Origin: a bacterium
GTDB lineage: Bacteria > Patescibacteriota > Saccharimonadia > Saccharimonadales > SZUA-47
Assembly (NCBI GenBank): GCA_030428125.1
Contig: JAUIBF010000001.1
Location: forward strand, 362,383 to 426,382
Reading direction: 5' to 3'
Length of the DNA: 64,000 bases
Shown here: piece by piece, positions 2,446 through 50,200 of the stretch
How the letters are laid out: the number at the start of each line of letters is the position of its first letter
Numbering within the stretch: the first letter of the stretch is position 1
The notes under the pieces: model-generated
What the model was told of the DNA's origin: nothing
What the model saw: the letters and a program-made list of their open reading frames with translations, nothing else
Database searches by the model: none
Program-made: the position numbers and the translations under genes

Positions 2446-2856
2446 GTGAGCCCTGAATCGATTTTAGCAATAACTGGAGCTGTTGTGGCAATTGGAGGCG
2501 CAACTGTTATATTGATGAGGAAGTTGCCAAAACGCATTAAGACCACTCACTATCGTCGTAAATGGAGAGAGCTGCAAAGAATGTGTGGCAACAAGCAAAC
2601 TTGGCCCGATGCTATCGTTGGCGCTGATAAGCTGCTTGATGATGTGTTGAAGAAACGTAGAAAACCAGGAAAGAAAATGGGCGAGCGAATGGTGGCAGCG
2701 CAGAAAAGCTTCACAAATAACGACGCCATCTGGAAAGCTCACAAATTAGCTGATCATATTGCACATAGCGAAGAGGAGGTCAAGCTTAAAGAAGATGATG
2801 TAAAAGATTCTCTGGTAGCTTTCCGTGAAGCCCTGAGAGATCTAGGAGCTATTTAG
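2446..2856 (+). CDS. membrane-anchored hypothetical protein embedded between gatA and gatB
   Basis: Its GTG directly follows the gatA TAA (2443-2445) and its TAG (2854-2856) abuts the gatB ATG. It has one N-terminal TM segment (ILAITGAVVAIGGATVILM) followed by a basic helical tail. Confidence 0.6.
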   Translation: MSPESILAITGAVVAIGGATVILMRKLPKRIKTTHYRRKWRELQRMCGNKQTWPDAIVGADKLLDDVLKKRRKPGKKMGERMVAAQKSFTNNDAIWKAHKLADHIAHSEEEVKLKEDDVKDSLVAFREALRDLGAI

Positions 2857-4341
2857 ATGGTCGATGAAAAGTACAAGGTTAAAGATTACTACCCAACGAT
2901 TGGGATAGAGTGCCATGTACAGCTAAAGACCAAAACAAAGTTGTTCAGTAGTGTCAGTAACGAGGCGATTGATGCCGAACCCAACACGTTGGTTAATCAT
3001 ATCTGTTTCGGTCTTCCTGGTGCATTACCAGTACTAAATGAGGAGGCGGTTAGGCTAGCATCTAAGGCAGCGTTTGCACTTGGCACAACACCACAGAAAT
3101 TCTCTAAGTTCGACAGAAAACATTATTTTTATCCAGACCTTCCAAAAGGCTACCAAATAAGCCAATTTGACGAACCAATTATTTTAGACGGTTCTATAGT
3201 AATACACCTCGAAGACGGTAGTCAGAAGACTATAAACATAACTCGTGCTCACATGGAAGAGGACGCCGGAAAATCCACTCATCCTAGCGGAGAAGATTTT
3301 TCATTAGTGGATTTGAATCGAGCTGGAACACCACTTCTTGAAATTGTTTCGGAGCCAGAAATTCACAGTTCTGCAGAAGCGAAAGCATATGCAAAAGAGT
3401 TATGGTTGAGAATGAAGTATGCAGGCGTGTCAGACGTAGATTTGTATCACGGCAATATGCGTTTCGATGTAAATGTAAGCGTTAGCAAAGACTCACAAAA
3501 ATTTGGTACAAGGACAGAAACTAAAAATCTAAATAGTTTTAAAAGCGTGGAACGAGCAGTCGACTACGAAATAGAACGTCAAATAAAAGCATTAGAAAAA
3601 GGTGAAAAAATTGTCCAGGAGACCAGGGGTTGGCTGGATGATAAACAGAAAACTGTTTCTCAGCGATCTAAAGAGGATGCGCACGACTATCGTTATTTCC
3701 CTGACCCCGATATCCCTCCAATTGTTTTGAGTGATGAATATATAGCTGAAATCAAAAAGTCTGTACAGAGAATGCCAGAAGAAATCCGCGAAGAATTATC
3801 AGAAGCAGGAATTGCTAAAGCAACGATCGAGGCTTTGATGGAGTCTAGCGGCAATGAGGATTACGTCGGACTTGTTATTGAAGCCCAAAAAGATGGCAAT
3901 AAGTTCGCAGCTTTTGTCGCTAACTTTATTGTAAACGATTACTTCAAGCTAATTTCTGATTCAAGAACGCAAACGAATGGTGCTGAGTCACTCAACAAAC
4001 TTCCTGGCATAAAGGTATTTAGCGATGTATTTGAGCTATTTAGCAGCAATGACATCAGCTCCAACAGTGTAGTGATGATTCTTTTTAAATTTTCACAAGG
4101 CACAACAGGATCGGTAAATGATTTCGTTGATAAAAATAACTTGCGGCAGATGAGCAATAGCGGAGAGATAGAAAAAATAGTAGATCAAGTTATAATTGAC
4201 AATCCAAAACCAGTTGAGGATGTAAAAAACGGTGAGATGAAGGCGATTGGATTCTTGGTCGGGCAAGTGATGAAGGCAAGCCAGGGTAAAGCAAATCCTG
4301 GGCTAGCAAAAGATCTAATTAAGAAAAAAATCGGGGTATAA
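2857..4341 (+). CDS. gatB: Asp/Glu-tRNA(Asn/Gln) amidotransferase subunit B
   Basis: 494 aa with a GatB-type N-terminus (YYPTIGIECHVQLKT) and a YqeY-like C-terminus (GFLVGQVMKASQGKANP). Confidence 0.95.
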   Translation: MVDEKYKVKDYYPTIGIECHVQLKTKTKLFSSVSNEAIDAEPNTLVNHICFGLPGALPVLNEEAVRLASKAAFALGTTPQKFSKFDRKHYFYPDLPKGYQISQFDEPIILDGSIVIHLEDGSQKTINITRAHMEEDAGKSTHPSGEDFSLVDLNRAGTPLLEIVSEPEIHSSAEAKAYAKELWLRMKYAGVSDVDLYHGNMRFDVNVSVSKDSQKFGTRTETKNLNSFKSVERAVDYEIERQIKALEKGEKIVQETRGWLDDKQKTVSQRSKEDAHDYRYFPDPDIPPIVLSDEYIAEIKKSVQRMPEEIREELSEAGIAKATIEALMESSGNEDYVGLVIEAQKDGNKFAAFVANFIVNDYFKLISDSRTQTNGAESLNKLPGIKVFSDVFELFSSNDISSNSVVMILFKFSQGTTGSVNDFVDKNNLRQMSNSGEIEKIVDQVIIDNPKPVEDVKNGEMKAIGFLVGQVMKASQGKANPGLAKDLIKKKIGV

Positions 4342-5715: not shown

Positions 5716-6120
5716 ATGGGTAAGGAACGAAATAAAGGCGTAGCAGCTGGAGTAGCAATTGGAGCAGTAGTAGGCGTTATAACGGGAATTCTATTTGCCC
5801 CAAAAAGCGGTAAAGAAACACGTCAAGACATTAAGGACGGGGCATCGAGGGCTGCACAGAAGTTTGAAAAACAGGCAAGACTTTTGCAAGCTGAGATTAC
5901 TGACCTCATTAAAAAAGTAGAAAATCAGGTCAAAGATAAAAAGGGAGCAGTGGCTAAAAAAGCTAAAGAACTCATTGAACAGGCTAAGAAAGCTCAAGCC
6001 CAACTAAAAGTTGTAGCAAAATCAGTTAAAGAAGGTGAAGCTGACGACAAAGATTTAGATAAAGCTATCAAAAAAGCCCAAGAAGCAAAAGATTCACTTG
6101 CTAAGTACCTAAAGAAATAA
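5716..6120 (+). CDS. YtxH-like protein
   Basis: 134 aa with a Gly/Ala-rich N-terminal hydrophobic segment followed by APKSGKETRQDIKD, then a long Lys/Ala-rich helix. Confidence 0.7.
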   Translation: MGKERNKGVAAGVAIGAVVGVITGILFAPKSGKETRQDIKDGASRAAQKFEKQARLLQAEITDLIKKVENQVKDKKGAVAKKAKELIEQAKKAQAQLKVVAKSVKEGEADDKDLDKAIKKAQEAKDSLAKYLKK

Positions 6121-34296: not shown

Positions 34297-35124
34297 TTGT
34301 ATTCGGGTACGACCTTAACCAATAAATCAGGTGCAATTTTAGGTGCGCATCAAAAAATTGATCGCGTTGCATATAAGTACTTGCAAAAAATTACGCCTGG
34401 TGAAGATGTTAAGGATTTTCCCTCGCTGAAGAGCATTTTACATTTTGAGGGTAAAAATGGTCCTGACGGGATTAAACGCAAGAGCCCTGCCAAAGATGAG
34501 CCATGGCATTTTTATGATCCTTTTGATTCCGACGACACACAACTATTGGAAATAATTGACAATCACTATAAGGAGCTGGTTAAACAGCTAAAGAAAGGCA
34601 CACCTGAAAAAGCTGCATTCGATACAGCTTGGCTAGCACACGCAGTGGTAGATGGTTTGACGCCGGCTCACCACTTCCCGTATGAAGAAAAGCTAGAGGA
34701 ACTTCGTGGAGGTGGAATGCACGAACGTGACTCAATAAAAAATAAGATACTAATCCCAGGCGAAACTCCCGGGGAAAGCGTAAAGAACAATTGGCAGATG
34801 TGGGGTTTTGGTGGGTTAATGAGTATGCATGCAGCTTTTGAAGCCGGCGTAGCAATAATCATGGCGCCTATTAGCATGAAAAAGGCCATCCCAACTGATA
34901 CGGATTTAGAGTTGCTTGCAGAAATTGGTTATGAGGAATATTTCAAGCGTGCAGCACGAGAGATAGCCATGCTCGATATGTATGACCGATTCCACGACAA
35001 GGGTTGGACCCCTAAACTAGTTCGTGATGTACGAAACCATCTTGGTCCCGTAATAATCAAAACAGTCTGTATGGTCTGGTACTCTGCAATGCGCGAAGCC
35101 GGAATGCTCAAAGGTAAGAAGTAA
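34297..35124 (+). CDS. hypothetical protein, possibly a zinc-dependent phospholipase C / S1-P1 nuclease-like fold
   Basis: 275 aa with a TTG start. His/Asp clusters (GAHQKIDRVA, PWHFYD, WLAHAVVDGLTPAHH) resemble the metal ligand pattern of that superfamily, but this is a weak call by eye. Confidence 0.5.
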   Translation: MYSGTTLTNKSGAILGAHQKIDRVAYKYLQKITPGEDVKDFPSLKSILHFEGKNGPDGIKRKSPAKDEPWHFYDPFDSDDTQLLEIIDNHYKELVKQLKKGTPEKAAFDTAWLAHAVVDGLTPAHHFPYEEKLEELRGGGMHERDSIKNKILIPGETPGESVKNNWQMWGFGGLMSMHAAFEAGVAIIMAPISMKKAIPTDTDLELLAEIGYEEYFKRAAREIAMLDMYDRFHDKGWTPKLVRDVRNHLGPVIIKTVCMVWYSAMREAGMLKGKK

Positions 35125-35126
35125 AA

Positions 35127-35155
35127 TTGACAAAAGTAAGCATTAGTGGTATTAT
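35127..35155 (+). promoter_or_regulatory. near-consensus sigma-70 promoter ahead of a long untranslated region
   Basis: TTGACA(35127-35132)-N17-TATTAT(35150-35155) with an extended-10 TGg. About 185 nt then precede the rsmD ATG. Confidence 0.65.
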
Positions 35156-35347
35156 GATACTATAGGCACATTATGCGCTCGCTCATCTCAAGCACTTGTA
35201 GATAGTTTGGCTTTACTTCTTGAGAATCGGAACAAAGCGTATATATAATACGGAGTAGTGAGAATCGCAAAGAATAAAGTCAAAATATCACAAGAACTAC
35301 TTTCAAGACCACAACTTGATTGTGATTTGGAAAGTAGTGTTGCTTAG

Positions 35348-35875
35348 ATGAGAATAATATCTGGTAAATATAAATCTCGTATCATTTCCGATACAAAAAA
35401 CAACCGAACTCACCCAATGAGTGAGAAAATTAGGGGCGCGCTATTTAACTCTATTGGTGACATTGAAGGATTGAGTTTTTTGGACGCTTTCTCAGGCACA
35501 GGCGCAGTAGCTATAGAAGCGTTAAGTCGTGGGGCAGTGGGTGTTCACGCTGTCGAGATTAACGCAGACAGCTTCGAAACACTTAAAGGAAATAGAGATA
35601 AGATTACTGATGAAGATGAATTGCAGGTTCATAGAGCTAATGTCAGGACTTGGCTAAAAAATTACGATAAATACTTCGACATAGTAGTAGCTGACCCTCC
35701 TTATGACGCAATCGGAATGAAAGCGCTTGATGCTTGCGCCGAATATGTGAATTCCAAAGGTTTGCTAATCGTCTCTTTGCCTGTTGCAGAGCATATAGAT
35801 TTCAAGGGATTTAAAAAAGTAGACGAAAAACGATACGGCAACGCAAAACTAGTCTTTTATAAGAAGTTAAAATAG
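35348..35875 (+). CDS. rsmD: 16S rRNA (guanine966-N2)-methyltransferase RsmD
   Basis: 175 aa with FLDAFSGTGAVAIEALSRGA (SAM motif) and VADPPYD. Confidence 0.85.
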   Translation: MRIISGKYKSRIISDTKNNRTHPMSEKIRGALFNSIGDIEGLSFLDAFSGTGAVAIEALSRGAVGVHAVEINADSFETLKGNRDKITDEDELQVHRANVRTWLKNYDKYFDIVVADPPYDAIGMKALDACAEYVNSKGLLIVSLPVAEHIDFKGFKKVDEKRYGNAKLVFYKKLK

Positions 35876-35901
35876 GTTATAATTGCCCAGAGCAAATCCA
35901 T

Positions 35902-35926
35902 GCGGATGTGGTGGAATTGGTAGACA
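35902..35926 (+). pseudogene. 5' fragment (positions about 1-24) of a second tRNA-Leu
   Basis: GCGGATGTGGTGGAATTGGTAGACA. The 18 nt of the D-arm are identical to the intact tRNA at 35961-35978. The acceptor strand GCGGATG is complementary to CATCCGC at 36142-36148. Confidence 0.7.
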
Positions 35927-35953
35927 TTTAACATATAGTAGAATTTTTTGGAC

Positions 35954-36038
35954 GCGCGAGTGGTGGAATTGGTAGACACGCTAGTCTTAGGAACTAGTGC
36001 AGCAATGCGTGAAGGTTCAAGTCCTTTCTCGCGCACCA
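35954..36038 (+). tRNA. tRNA-Leu (anticodon UAG), CCA encoded
   Basis: Folded by hand: acceptor GCGCGAG/CTCGCGC, D-arm GTGGAATTGGTAGACAC, anticodon stem CTAGT/ACTAG with loop CTTAGGA, a long variable arm, T-arm GAAGG-TTCAAGT-CCTTT, and discriminator A plus CCA. Confidence 0.9.
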
Positions 36039-36064
36039 AAAAATCTTACTATTGTGTCGCTGGT

Positions 36065-36095
36065 CCCCAGTAGTAAGCCAAAGGCTACTACGGGG
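36065..36095 (+). other. 13-bp hairpin abutting the tRNA 3' fragment
   Basis: CCCCAGTAGTAAGCC-AAA-GGCTACTACGGGG with two bulged A residues and no T-run. Confidence 0.5.
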
Positions 36096-36099
36096 CATG

Positions 36100-36152
36100 C
36101 TTAGGAACTAGTGCAGCAATGCGTGAAGGTTCAAGTCCTTTCATCCGCACCA
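36100..36152 (+). pseudogene. 3' fragment (anticodon loop to CCA) of the second tRNA-Leu
   Basis: The 43 nt at 36100-36142 are identical to 35986-36028 of the intact tRNA. Its acceptor strand CATCCGC pairs with the 5' fragment at 35902-35908. The 5' strand of the anticodon stem is missing. Confidence 0.75.
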
Positions 36153-36190
36153 AAACAACCTGCCGACTCTTGAGGTCGGCTTGTTGTTTT
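36152..36190 (+). terminator. intrinsic terminator of the tRNA-Leu transcription unit
   Basis: Stem GCCGAC/GTCGGC within a longer helix (AAAACAAC..GTTGTTTT), followed by the T-rich run TTGTTGTTTT. Confidence 0.65.
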
Positions 36191-36286
36191 GTGGGAAAAA
36201 CGACTTGAACCGGAGGGGAGGAATGCCAGTGGCATTCTGAGCAGGAGCTTCACTTGAAAACTTGTTTTCAAAGTAAGCGACGATCC

Positions 36287-36306
36287 TCAAGTCCTTTCAT
36301 CCACAC
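36287..36306 (+). repeat. third copy of the tRNA-Leu 3' end (T-loop to acceptor)
   Basis: TCAAGTCCTTTCATCCACAC matches 36131-36150 with one mismatch. It looks like an att-type direct-repeat remnant. Confidence 0.6.
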
Positions 36307-36364
36307 AGGAACTAACAGGCGTATAAAATCGCAATAATTAAAAAATTATTGTAAAATAGCGTTT

Positions 36365-37003
36365 ATGAGTTTTGAGTTTGAACCCGAAGGCGTGGACTTT
36401 AAGGGCGTAGAGCAGGATTATGCAGATGAAACGTTCTTATCAATACTTGAAGAGCAAAAAAGAAAGCTAGAGGCAGATAAGACCTCGACAGTTGACTTTA
36501 GCTGTGGGAAAACCAGAATTGATAGCTATCGGCAGCTTAGAAACAGGATACTTGCATTTGGGGGAATTGTCTTTCCAGATGTGTATCGTGAAAACAAACG
36601 AGCGTCTCATTTTGGCATCGGCATGATATATGCTCACAAAAGTTTAGGGCTAGGCTGGGCGAGAACGCGACGCTTAGCTGGAAGTAAATATAGAGCCTTG
36701 ACCTTTCAGGTTGGTGAAGCAGTAAATCTGGAAGGAGAAATTGCTACGGCTACAGACCCGGAATATCACGTCCGGGCAATTACTGACGAGAGGTTTACTG
36801 ACCCGATGGGTGCATACTGGAAAGCGATACCTAGGCATGGTGCTGATGACGATGACAAGGCACACTTCATGCTAGGTTCTGGATTAGTTTTAACAATAGC
36901 TCAGGATGTAGAGACATTGAAGTTTACGGGCGATGAGCACGCCCAGGCCATGGCTAAGATACGGGATCAGGCTAACATGCTTCGAGGGCAATCTGGTAGT
37001 TAG
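36365..37003 (+). CDS. hypothetical protein (orphan island gene 1)
   Basis: 212 aa. TAAAAT(36352-36357)-N7-ATG, a leaderless-type start. The 7-bp inverted repeat AATAATT/AATTATT lies just upstream. No family recognised. Confidence 0.55.
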   Translation: MSFEFEPEGVDFKGVEQDYADETFLSILEEQKRKLEADKTSTVDFSCGKTRIDSYRQLRNRILAFGGIVFPDVYRENKRASHFGIGMIYAHKSLGLGWARTRRLAGSKYRALTFQVGEAVNLEGEIATATDPEYHVRAITDERFTDPMGAYWKAIPRHGADDDDKAHFMLGSGLVLTIAQDVETLKFTGDEHAQAMAKIRDQANMLRGQSGS

Positions 37004-37104
37004 CGCAGAATTATTTTTAAGTGTGATTTTTATGATACTTTCAAACTCGTAGCTTCTAAAGTAAACTAACATTACTAGTTAAGCTAGATGCGGGAAGATT
37101 TGTC

Positions 37105-37692
37105 ATGGGATGTAACGAGCTGTCAGAGAACGGTTTCACCGACTTAGTACAACATCACCTAGTGGTTGCTGAAGACCCGAATGTTTCGCACGGCACTCGT
37201 AGCATAGATGTAGAGATTCACGACACAAAGCAGGTCATCAGGACTTTTCATAAAACATCACTGCTGCTGACTGCATATCCTGGGTATTTCGACTTGTCAT
37301 TTCAATCGAGCGAGCCAGACCCCGACATCGCCGTCGAGAGAATGATTAGTCTGATAAGCAGTAAAAACGCCCCTTATGATCAAGACCTAGAAAGTCTTCG
37401 GGTTAGCAGGCTTGAACAAGAGCCAGGCATAGATGAGCGCGAGTATTGTACTGTTTTAGTATTTGACGAGCTTGGTCGCAGTGCAGTAAAACTCAGCGAC
37501 ACATTTGTGCAACTAAGGATACCAAGCAGGGTTGTTTTAGGGGACGTTTTTAGCCTCCAGGCTTTAATGGGGGTAGCCTGGCGGGCTACCGGAGCCGACA
37601 AAATTCATAGTGCTGATGTACCAAGTGTTTCGCCAAAAATATTCGCGCATGGATTTAATTTGTCAATGTACGCCGAACAAATGTTTCAATAA
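37105..37692 (+). CDS. hypothetical protein (orphan island gene 2)
   Basis: 195 aa and acidic. No motif recognised. Confidence 0.5.
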   Translation: MGCNELSENGFTDLVQHHLVVAEDPNVSHGTRSIDVEIHDTKQVIRTFHKTSLLLTAYPGYFDLSFQSSEPDPDIAVERMISLISSKNAPYDQDLESLRVSRLEQEPGIDEREYCTVLVFDELGRSAVKLSDTFVQLRIPSRVVLGDVFSLQALMGVAWRATGADKIHSADVPSVSPKIFAHGFNLSMYAEQMFQ

Positions 37693-37740
37693 GTGACATA
37701 AGCAATATCTAATTCACGGTTGTTTTGATACATTTATCTC

Positions 37741-38670
37741 ATGGTAGAAACTTACAGACCGAATTTTGTTGTGGCAGCTGAATATTATGCTACAAGAGGT
37801 TCTGAGACTTCAGAGCTAGCGACACTACTAAAGCCTGAAGGTGATTTTCCTGACTTCGCTCAAAATGTATCTGGTATATGGGTTCCTCACGAGATCTCTG
37901 AAGACCATGAAAGATTCGACAAGCTAAACTTACTAGCTAATACCGTTTCACAACAGCGTGTCGACGAAGGTGAAGAACCGCTTCGGCTCTATTGTGATTT
38001 GTCTTGTTCTGGGTCGGTAAAGGATGTCATTAAATATCTGGGGAGGTTTTATAGAAGAACTTTTGCGCCTCATGTAACTGTTACGTTTGCACCAAAAGTT
38101 GAACCAGAATTAATCAAAGCCGTACTTGAGGATCATGCAGTACTGGAGGGTAAATGGGTTCATGACTTCATGCTCTCAGGTGTATTGCCAGAGGACAATC
38201 CTAATCCGGGAGAGTTCAACATGAAAAGGAGTCCAAAGAAAGAGATAAACAGAACTCGCAAAAGATCTAAGTTAGTTGCTCAGTTTGAAGAAAAAGGATA
38301 TCCAGGCTTAGTAGGGTTGTGCGGTCTAGGTTCCTTGGCATTACACACACTTCACGATCAACCCTATTTAGCAATGGGTGTAGATGACGGCGAAGGCTAC
38401 GTAGTTAAGTTAGGTGAAGACGATTTAGTCTTTAAGCGAGGTAGTACTTTAGCTGAGACTTTGCCACAAGCTACAATGACAGATTTGTTATTTGGTAGGG
38501 CTTTATTCAAAGACGCTACAGGCGAGCATACATCATTCGATATGGTTGATAAATCCGGTCGTCCGGAAGACCTGAAAAGGATATACGAAACAGTTGTTGC
38601 TAATATTAAAGACCGTAGGCAAAGAGTTGCTGAATACATAGCAAGTCGAGAGGAATTTGTAATTGCCTAA
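37741..38670 (+). CDS. hypothetical protein (orphan island gene 3)
   Basis: 309 aa. TGaTACATT-N6-ATG. Contains a central basic patch, KRSPKKEINRTRKRSK. No family recognised. Confidence 0.55.
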   Translation: MVETYRPNFVVAAEYYATRGSETSELATLLKPEGDFPDFAQNVSGIWVPHEISEDHERFDKLNLLANTVSQQRVDEGEEPLRLYCDLSCSGSVKDVIKYLGRFYRRTFAPHVTVTFAPKVEPELIKAVLEDHAVLEGKWVHDFMLSGVLPEDNPNPGEFNMKRSPKKEINRTRKRSKLVAQFEEKGYPGLVGLCGLGSLALHTLHDQPYLAMGVDDGEGYVVKLGEDDLVFKRGSTLAETLPQATMTDLLFGRALFKDATGEHTSFDMVDKSGRPEDLKRIYETVVANIKDRRQRVAEYIASREEFVIA

Positions 38671-38692
38671 TAAAAGTATTATAATTAGTCTT

Positions 38693-38749
38693 ATGTTTAA
38701 ACCAGAAAGCATAATGACACATATGCAGCCGGGGTCAGTTCTTCGGTAA
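38693..38749 (+). CDS. candidate 18-aa micro-ORF (or the 5' part of a small RNA)
   Basis: TATAAT(38680-38685)-N7-ATG. Encodes MFKPESIMTHMQPGSVLR. A strong terminator follows 24 nt downstream. Confidence 0.25.
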   Translation: MFKPESIMTHMQPGSVLR

Positions 38750-38772
38750 GTTTTCTAGTTGTTTGAAATCTC

Positions 38773-38798
38773 ACGCCGGAGGACACTCCGGCGTTTTT
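38773..38798 (+). terminator. strong intrinsic terminator
   Basis: Perfect 9-bp stem ACGCCGGAG/CTCCGGCGT, loop GACA, then T5. Confidence 0.85.
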
Positions 38799-38836
38799 AG
38801 TTTGTAAAAATTTAATGAATCAATTTAGGAAATAAT

Positions 38837-39109
38837 ATGAATACAAGAAAAGAAGACACAGGAATTGAAAGCCAGGAGCGTGGCCTTGACGTACCTAAGA
38901 TAGAGGGAGAGTTTTTTGGCGTTGATGGCAAGAGGTATCTTGATAGAAGATACACTGCTGAATATGTAGAACAAAGCACTGTTCTTACTCCAAGGACAGC
39001 CGATCTAAACATAGTTGGGCCTGCAATAGTGGAGCTCTCCACACCGGCAACAAGAGCAAGTGTAAAGAAAGCACTTCTTAATAAAAACTTGCCCGGTGTA
39101 AACCTGTAG
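38837..39109 (+). CDS. hypothetical 90-aa protein (monocistronic, flanked by terminators)
   Basis: AGGA lies 7 nt upstream of the ATG. No family recognised. Confidence 0.5.
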   Translation: MNTRKEDTGIESQERGLDVPKIEGEFFGVDGKRYLDRRYTAEYVEQSTVLTPRTADLNIVGPAIVELSTPATRASVKKALLNKNLPGVNL

Positions 39110-39138
39110 AAAGGAGGAGGTTTAAACCACCTCCTTTC
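39109..39138 (+). terminator. terminator-like hairpin before hisS
   Basis: GAAAGGAGGAGG-TTTAAA-CCACCTCCTTTC (11 bp, one mismatch). A T5 run lies 9 nt further downstream. Confidence 0.5.
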
Positions 39139-39185
39139 GTACTTAATTTTTAAAGCACATGCATATATGTGAAGGAATAGTTATA

Positions 39186-47229: not shown

Positions 47230-50200
47230 TGAGACGTTATACATCTAGCATAAATATTGAAGATTTTGATGCAGTACGACTTGCAGTCGCTAGTCCAGAT
47301 GACATCCTTGATTGGAGTCATGGTGAAGTTACCAAGCCAGAAACTATCAACTATCGAACACAAAAACCTGAACGTGATGGACTATTCTGTGAGAGAATTT
47401 TCGGCCCAGTAAAAGACATCAACCCGCATGACGCTAAGTTCAAAGGTGTAAGAAGCCGAGAAGCAGCAGTTGATAAAAAAGGTGAGCTTGTTACAAAAAG
47501 CATCGTTCGACGTGAGCGAATGGGTCACATCCAACTAGCTGCACCAGTTGCACACATTTGGTTCCTTCGTGGAACTCCATCAGCAATCGGATTGCTACTA
47601 GGAATGACTGTTAAGAACTTAGAGCGTATCGCTTACTTTGCTAGCTACGTCGTGATTTCAGTCGATGGGGAAGCTAAAGACAAATTGCTTGCTGACAAAG
47701 AAGCAGAATTTGCTGCTGCAAAAGAAGCTATCAAGTCACGATACGAAACAGAAGCAAAAGAAGAAGGTGCAAACGTAAAAGCGCTTGCAGAAATGCAGAC
47801 TAAAGAAATTGAAGAGCTTGAAGCTGATTTCGCTACTTACAAAGAACAGCTTGTTGGCCTTGAGAAAAAAGCACTGCTTTCTGAAACTGACTACCGAAAC
47901 CTTCCTGAAGAAATGGAAGACATCATTGAAGTCGGAATGGGTGGTTCAGCACTAAAAGACCTACTTCAAGAAGTAGACCTAGACGAGCTAATTGAACGAC
48001 TTCAGACTGAAGTTGAAGAAGCTAAAGGTCAACGACGCAAGAAGTTGATGAAACGACTTCGACTGCTAGAAAGCATGCAAAAAGCTGGCATCAAGCCTGC
48101 AAGTATGTGTGTATCTGTACTACCAGTCATCCCACCAGATCTTCGTCCGATGGTTCAACTAACTGGTGGTCGATTCGCTACATCTGACCTAAACGACCTA
48201 TACCGACGTGTAATTAACAGAAACAATCGTCTGCGAAAGCTTATCGATTTGAATGCACCAGAAGTTATTCGCCGAAACGAACAACGTATGTTGCAAGAAG
48301 CCGTTGATGCACTAATCGACAACAACTCAACTCGTTCAGGACGTGCAATTGCATCAACAGGACAGAGACGGCGCCTAAAATCACTATCTGACATGCTAAA
48401 AGGTAAGCAAGGTCGATTCCGACAAAACTTGCTTGGTAAGCGTGTAGACTACTCTGGTCGTTCGGTAATTGTTGCCGGTCCAGAACTGTCTATTGATGAA
48501 TGTGGTCTGCCGAAGATGATGGCTCTTGAATTGTTCAAACCATTCGTAATCGGTTACCTAATTGAGCGTGACCTTGCACATAACATTCGTTCTGCAACCA
48601 GAATGATTGAACTTGGTGAAACAGCTGTTTGGGATGCCCTAGACTACGTAATCGAAGGTAAGTACGTGCTACTTAACCGTGCACCATCTCTTCACCGATT
48701 GTCTATCCAAGCATTCAAACCACGACTAATCGAAGGTAAGGCTATCCAGCTTCACCCACTAGTTTGTAAAGGTTTCAACGCTGACTTCGACGGTGACCAG
48801 ATGGCTGTTCACCTTCCATTGTCTAAGAAAGCACAAGCTGAAGCTCGAGAAATCATGGCTGCTAACAAGAACTTGCTTAAGCCTGCTGATGGTTCTCCAA
48901 TCCTTCATATCGAACAAGACATCGTGCTTGGTTGTTACTACTTAACCTATAACCGTGCTTCACACGCAAAAGAAAAAGCGAAAACTTTCTCATCTGTATC
49001 TGAAGCTGTTATGGCTCGTGATAAAGGTGAACTAACACTTCAGAATCCTATCATCACAACTTTCCGTGGTGAAAAGATTGAAACAACTCTAGGTAGAATT
49101 CTGTTCAACGAAATTCTTCCAGAAGATTTTCCATTCCAAAACGAAGATATGACTAAGAAGCGCCTAAATGGCGTGATGGCAGAAATCTTCGCTAAATATG
49201 GGCAGGAAAAAACTGCACGTGTAGCTGACGACCTAAAACGACTTGGTTTCGAATACGCAACACGTTCAGGCCTATCAATGGGTATGACCGACTTTATCGA
49301 CGTACCAGAAGTTAAGAAGATTCTTGATGCTGGTGAAAAGAAAGCCACCGAGATCGACGAACAGTATGAACAAGGTTTCATTACTGACGAAGAACGATAT
49401 CGATTGACTGTAGAAACTTGGATGGACGCTGATGCCAAAGTTCAGGACACGTTAGCAGAACAATTCGTAAAAGAAGATAGCGCTATGTCAACTGCTGTTA
49501 ACTCTGGTGCTCGTGGTAACATTGGTCAGGTTAAAACCGCAGTCGGTTTACTTGGTGTGGTTACAGACGCGACCGGTAAAGCTGTAGAGCTCCCAATTAA
49601 GAACAACTATAAAGGTGGCCTAACGCCGCTAGAGTACTTTACGGCAACTCGTGGTGCTCGAAAAGGTATGATTGACACTGCGCTTAAGACGGCTGACTCT
49701 GGATACCTAACTCGACGTCTAGTTGATGTTTCTCAAGACGTATTTACTACAGAAGAAGACATTGTTGACCCAGGATTTGCTCTGTACCGTGAAGGTGCTA
49801 AAGAAATTGGCGTAAGCTACGGTTCTCGTCTTGAAGGACGCTACTCTGCTGAAGATGTAGATGGTCACATCAAGAAGGGTGAACTATTTACAGCTGAAAT
49901 CGCAGAAGCAATTGACGCTGACGAAAAAGTTGATGGAGTGAAAATAATGAGCATCCTATCTGTCCCGTCAGTACGTGGTATTCCACAGAAGAGCTACGGA
50001 CTTGACCCAGCCACAGGAAGCCTAGTAAGCCTTTACCATCCAGTTGGTGTTATTGCTGCACAAAGTATCGGTGAGCCTGGTACGCAGTTGACACTTCGAA
50101 CATTCCACTCCGGTGGTACGGCTGGCGAAGACATCACTACAGGTCTTCCACGTGTTGAAGAGTTGTTTGAAGTTCGAACGCCGAAAGGACAAGCATTCCT

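Follow-up and report, generated by a model that had tools for sequence, protein, structure and literature searches.

Organization of the tRNA-Leu(UAG) locus

The locus studied here lies between rsmD and hisS in a stretch of 64,000 nucleotides (64 kb) from a Saccharimonadales bacterium (Patescibacteriota, lineage SZUA-47; GenBank assembly GCA_030428125.1, contig JAUIBF010000001.1, positions 362,383 to 426,382 of the forward strand), which is called the window below. It contains one complete gene for the leucine transfer RNA (tRNA) with anticodon UAG, tRNA-Leu(UAG), named B (acceptor stem GCGCGAG/CUCGCGC), and this gene is flanked by two pieces of another tRNA-Leu(UAG) gene, named A (acceptor stem GCGGAUG/CAUCCGC), one of 25 nt from its 5′ end and one of 53 nt from its 3′ end. 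The loci and contigs that were fetched and compared with the window are labelled with L-numbers (L001, L125 and so on), and all features of the window locus given below lie on the forward strand.

The 5′ piece of A (35902–35926; GCGGATGTGGTGGAATTGGTAGACA) comprises tRNA positions 1–25, that is the acceptor 5′ strand GCGGATG and most of the D arm, and was identical at 25/25 positions to the A-type genes of L122, L123 and L125 (BLAST E 7.7e-9). It is preceded by a promoter-like site of the old gene, TTTATA-16-TATAAT (35856–35883, with the −10 part TATAAT at 35878–83), which is found at the same position 5′ of the intact A genes of L125 and L123. Spacer 1 (35927–35953), the leader of B, has a homologue only in the same-sample contig L001 among the fetched loci. 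B itself (35954–36038; acceptor strands GCGCGAG and CTCGCGC, CCA encoded) was the sole tRNA called in the 64 kb by ARAGORN, a tRNA caller of the kind proposed as a check in an earlier first-pass annotation of the letters alone, and by Rfam (tRNA, 58.1 bits), and it is presumed to be the working gene. Spacer 2 (36039–36099) holds an imperfect 13-bp hairpin (36065–95), seen in the sequence and its fold, which lacks a T-run, so that no terminator lies between B and the 3′ piece of A. This 3′ piece (36100–36152) comprises positions 33–85, from the first base of the anticodon loop to CCA, and resembles an attR-type fragment; it was identical to B over 43/43 nt and then reads CATCCGCACCA where B has CTCGCGCACCA (BLAST E 1.5e-25). 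The acceptor strands of the two pieces, GCGGATG and CATCCGC, are exactly complementary, all three differences from B are compensatory, and 7 nt, CGCTAGT (positions 26–32), are absent between the pieces. The intrinsic terminator T1 (36152–36190; hairpin at 36162–80, then a T-run) was once the terminator of A and now serves the whole unit. All the elements listed in the first-pass annotation, including the terminator at 36152–90, the compensatory acceptor differences and the 7 missing nt, were found where it had placed them.

Three further features came to light. A second promoter-like site, TTGGTA-16-TAGAAT (35917–35944), was recognized as a consensus match only; its −35 TTGGTA is within the A 5′ relic and its −10 TAGAAT in spacer 1, and it ends 9 nt 5′ of B, so that it would be a fusion promoter for B. 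A 17-nt inverted repeat of leader and trailer (35935–51 and 36036–52; 88% complementary) surrounds B, pairs in the minimum free energy fold and would extend the acceptor stem of B in the precursor. A repeat search furthermore detected a diverged inverted copy of the T-loop/acceptor 3′ segment (36190–36211; TGTGGGAAAAACGACTTGAACC) after T1. The motif TAGTAG/CTACTA was also seen four times around B, at 35935, 36045 (complement), 36068 and 36084 (complement); these copies permit 1:2, 2:3 and 3:4 pairings in an attenuator-like layout without a T-run.

The arrangement was compared with the Logan assembly of run ERR3428546, in which contig L001 covers rsmD, followed by the A 5′ piece and spacer 1, as well as the initial 30 nt of B, and contig L128 begins inside the A 3′ end and runs through the terminator into the downstream sequence. 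The left junction is present in two assemblies; the independent assembly leaves the central 150 bp (~35984–36131) uncovered, its contigs breaking at the shared tRNA sequence. These breaks suggest several strains in the sample and, together with the presence of the 43-nt repeat, would fit an assembly chimera in which A-type and B-type strains were joined at the tRNA core that they have in common. Such an artefact is nevertheless extremely improbable. The junction of GACA with TTTAAC recurs in the second assembly and lies outside any repeat, and a graph-walk chimera is therefore unlikely; moreover, L275 and L276, which come from other samples, show the same kind of architecture, and spacer 2 is placed by no alternative linear path.

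The resident gene in relatives and the exchange of acceptor stems

The first-pass annotation had proposed aligning the locus across related genomes, and this alignment recovered the uninterrupted state. An intact A gene was present in five of the six genome relatives (L122, L123, L124, L125 and L127) and also in L281, L283 and L284, and L274 (RsmD 86% identical) has an A-type 3′ end at the end of its contig. In L123, L281 and L283, rsmD is followed directly by intact A. The nearest “empty site” is L125, in which rsmD, TATAAT, intact A, the terminator and a downstream element succeed one another; the terminator is 92.5% identical to window 36153–92 and the downstream element 87% identical to window 36190–36286. 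Relative to L125, the window has CGCTAGT (positions 26–32) exchanged for 173 bp (35927–36099). Because relatives like L125 carry the gene uninterrupted, the fragments are the two halves of the former resident gene A, and the derivation of the fragments from one formerly functional paralogue, as suggested in the first-pass annotation, was borne out by relatives that carry exactly that gene intact. Judged by these comparisons, A is the ancestral tRNA-Leu(UAG) of this Saccharibacteria sub-clade, located directly 3′ of rsmD with its own promoter and terminator. The outer gene is broken, between the D stem and the anticodon loop, and the inner one intact, and B therefore arrived later. We have high confidence in the replacement of A by B and in the A pieces being its relics.

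A similar arrangement recurs in other relatives. In L275 (RsmD 80%), rsmD and the promoter are followed by the 5′ piece of A in decayed form (GCAAATGTGGCGGAATTAGTAGAT; 5 changes over 24 nt), a 24-nt spacer and the start of a B gene (GCGCGAG…), at which the contig ends. In L276 (79%), an A-like 5′ part stands before a C-type gene (GCCGCGG), and a perfect A-type 3′ end, …AAGTCCTTTCATCCGCACCA, stands after it. The B-type acceptor belongs to the sole gene in L126, L132, L133, L140, L163, L194 and L238. Relatives with 67–86% RsmD identity carry acceptors of type A, B (L126, L275) or C (L235, L276, L277), and types A and B both reappear in distant syntenic relatives. The variable arms do not follow these types: TGCAGCAATGCG is common to window B, the A 3′ relic, L124 (type A) and L235 (type C); TGCCTCACGGCG to L133 (type B), L177 and L185 (both type A); and TGTCGCAAGACG to L126 and L163 (both type B) as well as L127 and L213 (both type A). 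Identical variable arms across acceptor types indicate that gene ends have been exchanged on a nearly constant core, and this pattern of swapping points to recombination or replacement rather than stepwise compensatory mutation.

The genes upstream of the locus are chromosomal housekeeping genes, encoding PBP1A, TyrS (tyrS), a methyltransferase, RecG (recG), a 275-aa protein and RsmD (rsmD), and the locus is followed by three open reading frames (ORFs) without family matches and then hisS; the cargo ORFs of the interval gave zero Pfam or PHROGs matches. The relatives with RsmD at 67–78% identity were all metagenome-assembled genomes (MAGs) of Candidatus Saccharibacteria, and the synteny recG-p275-rsmD-tRNA-Leu(UAG)-…-hisS reaches relatives with RsmD identity of only ~37%. 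The rsmD–hisS interval varies from ~1.3 kb to 4.9 kb with differing ORFs (window, L122, L123, L126 and L127), and the tRNA unit is inverted in L126, L127, L274, L277 and L284. With RsmD at 94% (85.6% nucleotide identity), the closest of the relatives found shares homology with the window only as far as the rsmD stop codon. The region 3′ of rsmD is a hypervariable hotspot. The first-pass annotation had called the locus an integration hotspot, and as a variable locus the hotspot was upheld: the content of the interval, the orientation of the tRNA and the acceptor type differ among close relatives.

Several side observations concern the same interval. Spans with variable cargo, mostly without family matches, were noted at window 35876–39158, L122:1872–6759 and L276:5529–10021 and in L123, L126, L127 and L277. 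A protein family of 209–235 aa is common to the window, L122 and L127, and hisD- and hisI-like genes adjoin hisS in L122, L123 and L277. L123 has a tRNA-Leu(CAG) at 1174–1260 with the same A-type acceptor stem, 210 nt after its tRNA-Leu(UAG); the 64 kb of the window, unlike this L123 pair, has no second tRNA.

A structured RNA module in the T-loop of partial tRNA copies

Downstream of T1, a third copy of the T-loop-to-acceptor segment (36287–36306; CATCCACAC, one mismatch) consists of the 3′ part of the T-loop, the 3′ strand of the T stem and a decayed acceptor 3′ strand of type A. The homologous site of L284 reads TCAAGTCCTTTCATCCGCACCA (…CATCCGCACCA) and is followed by its own terminator. 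The first-pass annotation had counted this copy as an independent scar, but it turned out to be the 3′ strand that closes a conserved, structured RNA module, which in the window spans 36208–36299 and is closed by the T-stem-like helix GGAGG/CCTTT.

In relatives, partial tRNA copies beside tRNA-Leu(UAG) hold an insert of ~95 nt in the T-loop, between T54 and C56, and these copies occur in two forms. The upstream form, U, comprises the acceptor 5′ strand and D arm, then a remodelled anticodon stem and the variable arm, and after these the 5′ strand of the T stem, the insert and AAGTCCTTT(CA); the acceptor 3′ strand is never present, and the promoter of the real gene follows. Clear U examples are L133(−), L188(−), L213(−), L276:5551–5810 and L277(−), and the U form of L127(−) has the insert after the anticodon loop instead. 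The anticodon-stem 5′ strand of U is consistently remodelled (…GGCAC/AGCAC/ACGCAC…), at a spot that coincides with the break point of A in the window (positions 25–32). The downstream form, Y, stands after the terminator of the gene and comprises an inverted T-loop/acceptor copy and the insert, the latter set between the 5′ strand of the T stem and (C)AAGTCC; the 3′ strands of the T stem and of the acceptor follow, and then CCA and a terminator of its own. It was found in the window and in L124, L125, L127, L129, L133, L172, L235, L238, L276, L281 and L284; one L124 copy has the insert in the D-loop instead.

Six of the inserts align as a four-way junction closed by the T stem, with compensatory changes in 19/37 pairs, and the covariance model R1 was built from these six. 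The model detected 18 sites in 12 loci and further sites in newly fetched relatives, and no site in ~100 tRNA-Leu(UAG) loci of other lineages. In the window, the module scored 34.3 bits in a match to the entire model (E 3e-7 for 140 kb of sequence, 1.5e-6 for 726 kb); it is 87–89% identical to those of L125 and L133 and represents a “beta” variant without the third hairpin. Other copies lie at L133:1517–1623(−), L213:1183–1290(−), L129:7145–7251(−), L124:1681–1789, L188:3086–3196(−), L235:4217–4324, L276:5706–5812 and 6011–6117, and L281:4710–4816. In the model-fitted alignment, the fitting of which favours the structure, 94.7% of the cells were paired and 30/37 pairs had changed on both sides; the covariation score was 0.391 as against at most 0.073 when the partners were slid by 1–3 columns, and 0/500 shuffles reached the observed value. 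Furthermore, G-U pairs exceeded A-C pairs by 39 to 4, and the fold therefore lies on the sense strand of the tRNA and points to RNA. Rfam scans of the window and six relatives returned only tRNA at the locus; in L124, L125 and L127 nothing was matched at or near it, and the other matches in these three were weak, far below the gathering score and elsewhere. A scan of viral contigs for the alpha-module pattern gave 22 chance matches, all in coding sequence.

The inverted T-loop/acceptor copy that stands directly after the terminator tracks the resident acceptor type. It matches the resident tRNA exactly over 11 nt in L127 and L238, 17 nt in L172 (1311–1327) and 18 nt in L235 (4187–4204) and L247, and imperfectly in L281 and L284. 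Given this copy, the terminator sits at the tip of a much longer inverted repeat. Other identities were considered for the module and set aside: miniature inverted-repeat transposable elements or insertion sequence ends, because the sequences at the ends follow the type of the resident tRNA and G-U pairs are far above A-C; an integron attC-like site, for which no IntI gene was found; and a kink-turn, a T-box or a bulge-helix-bulge intron, the motifs of which were absent on inspection. A hammerhead-like string, CUGAUGA…GAAA, in L127 did not fit the consensus and had no Rfam match. A search of the window for a second copy through perfect hairpins gave one candidate near 47,960–48,013, which looks like part of an uninterrupted coding sequence.

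In L276 and L277, the tRNA-like 5′ parts of U have decayed with the module intact, and thus it is the module, not tRNA mimicry, that is conserved. Known noncoding RNAs that ride on tRNA processing signals include the tRNA-small nucleolar RNA dicistrons of plants, the tRNA-microRNA units of murine gammaherpesvirus 68 (MHV68) and the sponge from the 3′ external transcribed spacer of E. coli leuZ. The module is like these in being on the tRNA strand, directly up- or downstream of tRNA-Leu(UAG) and within tRNA-like sequence; unlike them, it is inserted in the T-loop and closed by the T stem, and it matches no described family. At a guess of low confidence, the module might be a small RNA that uses the tRNA-like flanks for processing, or an element tied to exchange at this locus. 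A literature search gave nothing relevant on tRNA-like or T-loop elements in Patescibacteria.

The conservation of partial tRNA-Leu copies beside the gene in relatives also bears on the possibility that the window unit is a functional composite RNA, in which the outer halves, with their 7-bp acceptor helix, intact T arm and CCA, pair around B as a split tRNA, a decoy or a processing scaffold. The whole unit folds far better than shuffled sequences (z −5.56) and is closed by the acceptor helix of A, the relics are perfectly preserved, and B is not separated from the A 3′ piece by a terminator. Plain intact A genes in relatives nevertheless speak against it, as do the missing anticodon-stem 5′ strand, the lack of conservation of the spacers, and the decay of the A 5′ piece in L275 and of the upstream tRNA-like 5′ parts in L276 and L277, and conversion by B would account for most of the preservation; we give such a role very little probability. 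In archaea such as Nanoarchaeum and Caldivirga, split tRNA halves are joined by an endonuclease and a ligase at bulge-helix-bulge motifs. The window resembles these systems in having two pieces with complementary acceptor strands, but its pieces lack positions 26–32 with no complementary sequence or bulge-helix-bulge motif in their place, and the relatives are uninterrupted. The co-transcribed split or decoy tRNA that the first-pass annotation had kept as a less likely alternative is allowed by the data and required by none of them. No match to the catalytic core of a group I intron, as known from anticodon loops of bacterial tRNAs, was seen; nothing except tRNA matched Rfam at E up to 10 in 35000–37000. 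The literature search gave nothing relevant on tRNA introns in Saccharibacteria or the candidate phyla radiation.

Inserts of a different family were seen beside tRNA-Leu(UAG) elsewhere. A metagenome scan by the anticodon arm showed that this arm is conserved far beyond Saccharibacteria, with most of 120 loci coming from other lineages. Genes with acceptor GGGCATG from assorted metagenomes, several of them human gut, have one to three tandem units of ~101 nt upstream (L195(−), oriented coordinates 2690–3005; L198:3600–3845; L141, L153, L216 and L223). Each unit consists of TTGACAAYTAAATAT, tRNA positions 1–11, a ~45-nt hairpin insert in the D-loop, positions 17–27 and a hairpin, and the insert family differs from the Saccharibacteria module. 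At L204:1704–1783, 3′ of a GGGCGAG-type tRNA-Leu(UAG), a partial copy starts from position 17 and has a diverged T arm and the acceptor 3′ strand CGTCCCCACCA; it is a further displaced fragment, at the D-loop boundary.

Probable replacement of the resident gene and its precedents

Five IMG/VR contigs of one family (L032, L271, L119, L110 and L272) encode a tyrosine integrase (Pfam Phage_integrase, E 3.6e-26) and carry, ~270 nt from the integrase, an A-type tRNA-Leu(UAG) 3′ fragment that starts 1–2 nt before the anticodon loop. At least two of them, L032 (453–3493) and L271, also hold a complete tRNA-Leu(UAG), inverted and 1.7 kb from the fragment, and therefore integrating elements that target this sublocation with a whole tRNA-Leu(UAG) exist. 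A 430-aa ORF is likewise conserved in the family, and the same fragment-ORF-tRNA unit was found in a metagenome contig (L185:377–2193), with 57% protein identity and a tRNA that has a Saccharibacteria-type anticodon arm. An initial scan of viral contigs with the shared T-arm had been too generic (120 matches, mostly phage tRNA-Leu genes), a scan for the spacer-2 hairpin gave 0 matches, and BLAST of the locus against GenBank phages returned tRNA-Leu genes only.

The closest precedent is the tRNA-dependent lysogeny of actinobacteriophages, in which the host tRNA gene is not rebuilt and a phage tRNA of the same isotype complements it, so that the product consists of the host 5′ half, an intact foreign tRNA and the host 3′ half (Guerrero-Bustamante & Hatfull, 2024; PMC10865867). 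The window has the same layout: the host gene is split and unrebuilt, with A positions 1–25 and 33–85 only and no A called by ARAGORN, and the insert carries a complete tRNA-Leu(UAG) of the same isotype (35954–36038) between the host halves. It differs in that the insert is 173 bp without a tyrosine integrase or prophage, that no short common core (~10 bp) stands at both junctions and 7 nt are missing, and that the host is a Saccharibacterium. We suggest that the locus is probably a gene-replacement relic, a minimal end state nearest to tRNA-dependent lysogeny; this judgement combines the high confidence in the replacement itself with a more reserved view of the route, integration followed by deletion, to which we would give slightly less than an even chance.

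By this route, mobile DNA bearing a tRNA would have integrated by site-specific recombination at the anticodon loop of A, which would create the right junction and the 3′ fragment beginning at the loop, and A would either not have been rebuilt, as in tRNA-dependent lysogeny, or have been rebuilt and then lost. A deletion from A position 26 to just 5′ of the promoter of the imported gene (its −10 region) would have removed the rest of the element, and the cell would have survived this since the imported B supplied the tRNA. The 7 missing nt would then be the gap between the endpoint of the deletion and the start of the att identity block, two independent boundaries and not the product of a single cut. 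Transcription from the old and the fusion promoters may now cross B and the A 3′ relic and stop at the old terminator; B would be released by RNase P and 3′ processing, and the A pieces would be by-products. Relic positions 7–25 and 33–75 are identical to B, and gene conversion by B could keep them perfect; such conversion would explain why the relics are intact in the window and the relic of L275 has 5 changes.

The right junction bears the hallmark of an att junction, since the old 3′ part, which still has its own terminator, resumes exactly where the anticodon loop begins. The anticodon loop is reportedly a sublocation of tRNA-gene integration, as described by Williams in 2002. In classical island integration, the gene is restored and only the displaced fragment is left (Islander; PMC4383910). 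The 3′ fragment at 36100–52 is like such integrase att repeats in being direct, in starting at the anticodon loop, in its 43-nt identity block and in keeping the original terminator, and older 3′ ends are stacked further downstream in relatives. Repeated integrase-mediated integration and excision that leaves only direct repeats, with the intact gene as the regenerated target, would account for this fragment and for the 3′ fragments with their own terminators stacked in relatives, and the integrase-bearing viral-contig family has a matching att-like fragment. We nonetheless consider it quite improbable that such scars explain the locus. A regenerated target retains the host 5′ half, whereas B is no hybrid of a host 5′ and an element 3′ part: both its acceptor strands are new, and the old 5′ piece stands upstream. 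Moreover, the gap between gene and fragment is only 61 nt, with no island, integrase or other cargo, and the third “scar” is part of the conserved RNA module. Of the integration scars proposed in the first-pass annotation, what stands is a 3′ fragment that starts at the sublocation used by the tyrosine-integrase viral contigs; the complete B gene with both acceptor strands new was left unexplained by them, and an element that left the scars did not come to light.

Several observations weigh against the proposed replacement through mobile DNA. No integrase, phage or other mobile-element gene occurs in the rsmD–hisS interval of the window or in any relative interval examined. No common core is repeated at the junctions of GACA with TTTAAC and of GCATG with CTTAGG, though a later deletion could have erased attL. 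The spacers flanking B are unmatched in viral contigs, GenBank phages and the fetched loci (spacer 1 apart from its same-sample copy), and the B-type 3′ end had 0 matches in the viral contigs; thus, the donor was not found. The viral contigs hold their tRNA inverted and 1.7 kb from the att-like fragment, as against 61 nt and direct orientation in the window, and Saccharibacteria are no more than possible hosts of this contig family. If the event is shared with L275, the perfect relics of the window need conversion and luck, or selection. The core of B, including the variable arm, is furthermore identical to the A 3′ relic, which needs gene conversion or a donor with the same core.

This identity, 69/69 to the composite core of A with the variable arm included, makes an origin in situ possible, in which A was locally duplicated or copied by a template switch and the ends of the middle copy were then converted to the B allele without any mobile element. 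The absence of mobile genes from the interval would agree with this, and direct-inverted-direct copies of tRNA 3′ ends around terminator hairpins, which look like products of template switching, are common at the locus. Three adjacent pairs differ, however, and other lineages have exactly the B acceptor as their only allele, implying an imported, pre-existing allele; in addition, B has its own −10 region and a co-adapted leader and trailer unrelated to the flanks of A. We therefore consider an origin in situ unlikely, though not negligibly so.

A wider reading, speculative and rather unlikely, would make the Saccharimonadales tRNA-Leu(UAG) locus a dedicated exchange platform, in which the module and the inverted T-arm/acceptor copies mediate or mark the serial, cassette-like replacement of the tRNA gene or its ends. 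If this is true, recombinases encoded elsewhere would do the work, acceptor alleles (A, B, C and others) would turn over unusually rapidly while the core stayed constant, perhaps in response to tRNA-targeting toxins or phages, and the window would be an intermediate of exchange and not an accident.

Read as a replacement relic, the locus shows the swap of the only tRNA-Leu(UAG) found in the 64-kb window, one likely to be essential in this reduced-genome bacterium, for an allele with a different acceptor stem, and it would carry the principle of tRNA-dependent lysogeny over to Saccharibacteria and to an end state that is minimal and domesticated. For annotation, it means that the tRNA fragments here are not all integration scars. 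Two leads follow, the rapid turnover of acceptor-stem alleles at a syntenic locus and a covarying T-loop RNA module without an Rfam family, and both are more surprising than the replacement relic itself. Should the module prove to be linked to this exchange or to conflict directed at tRNA, it would represent a new kind of RNA element.

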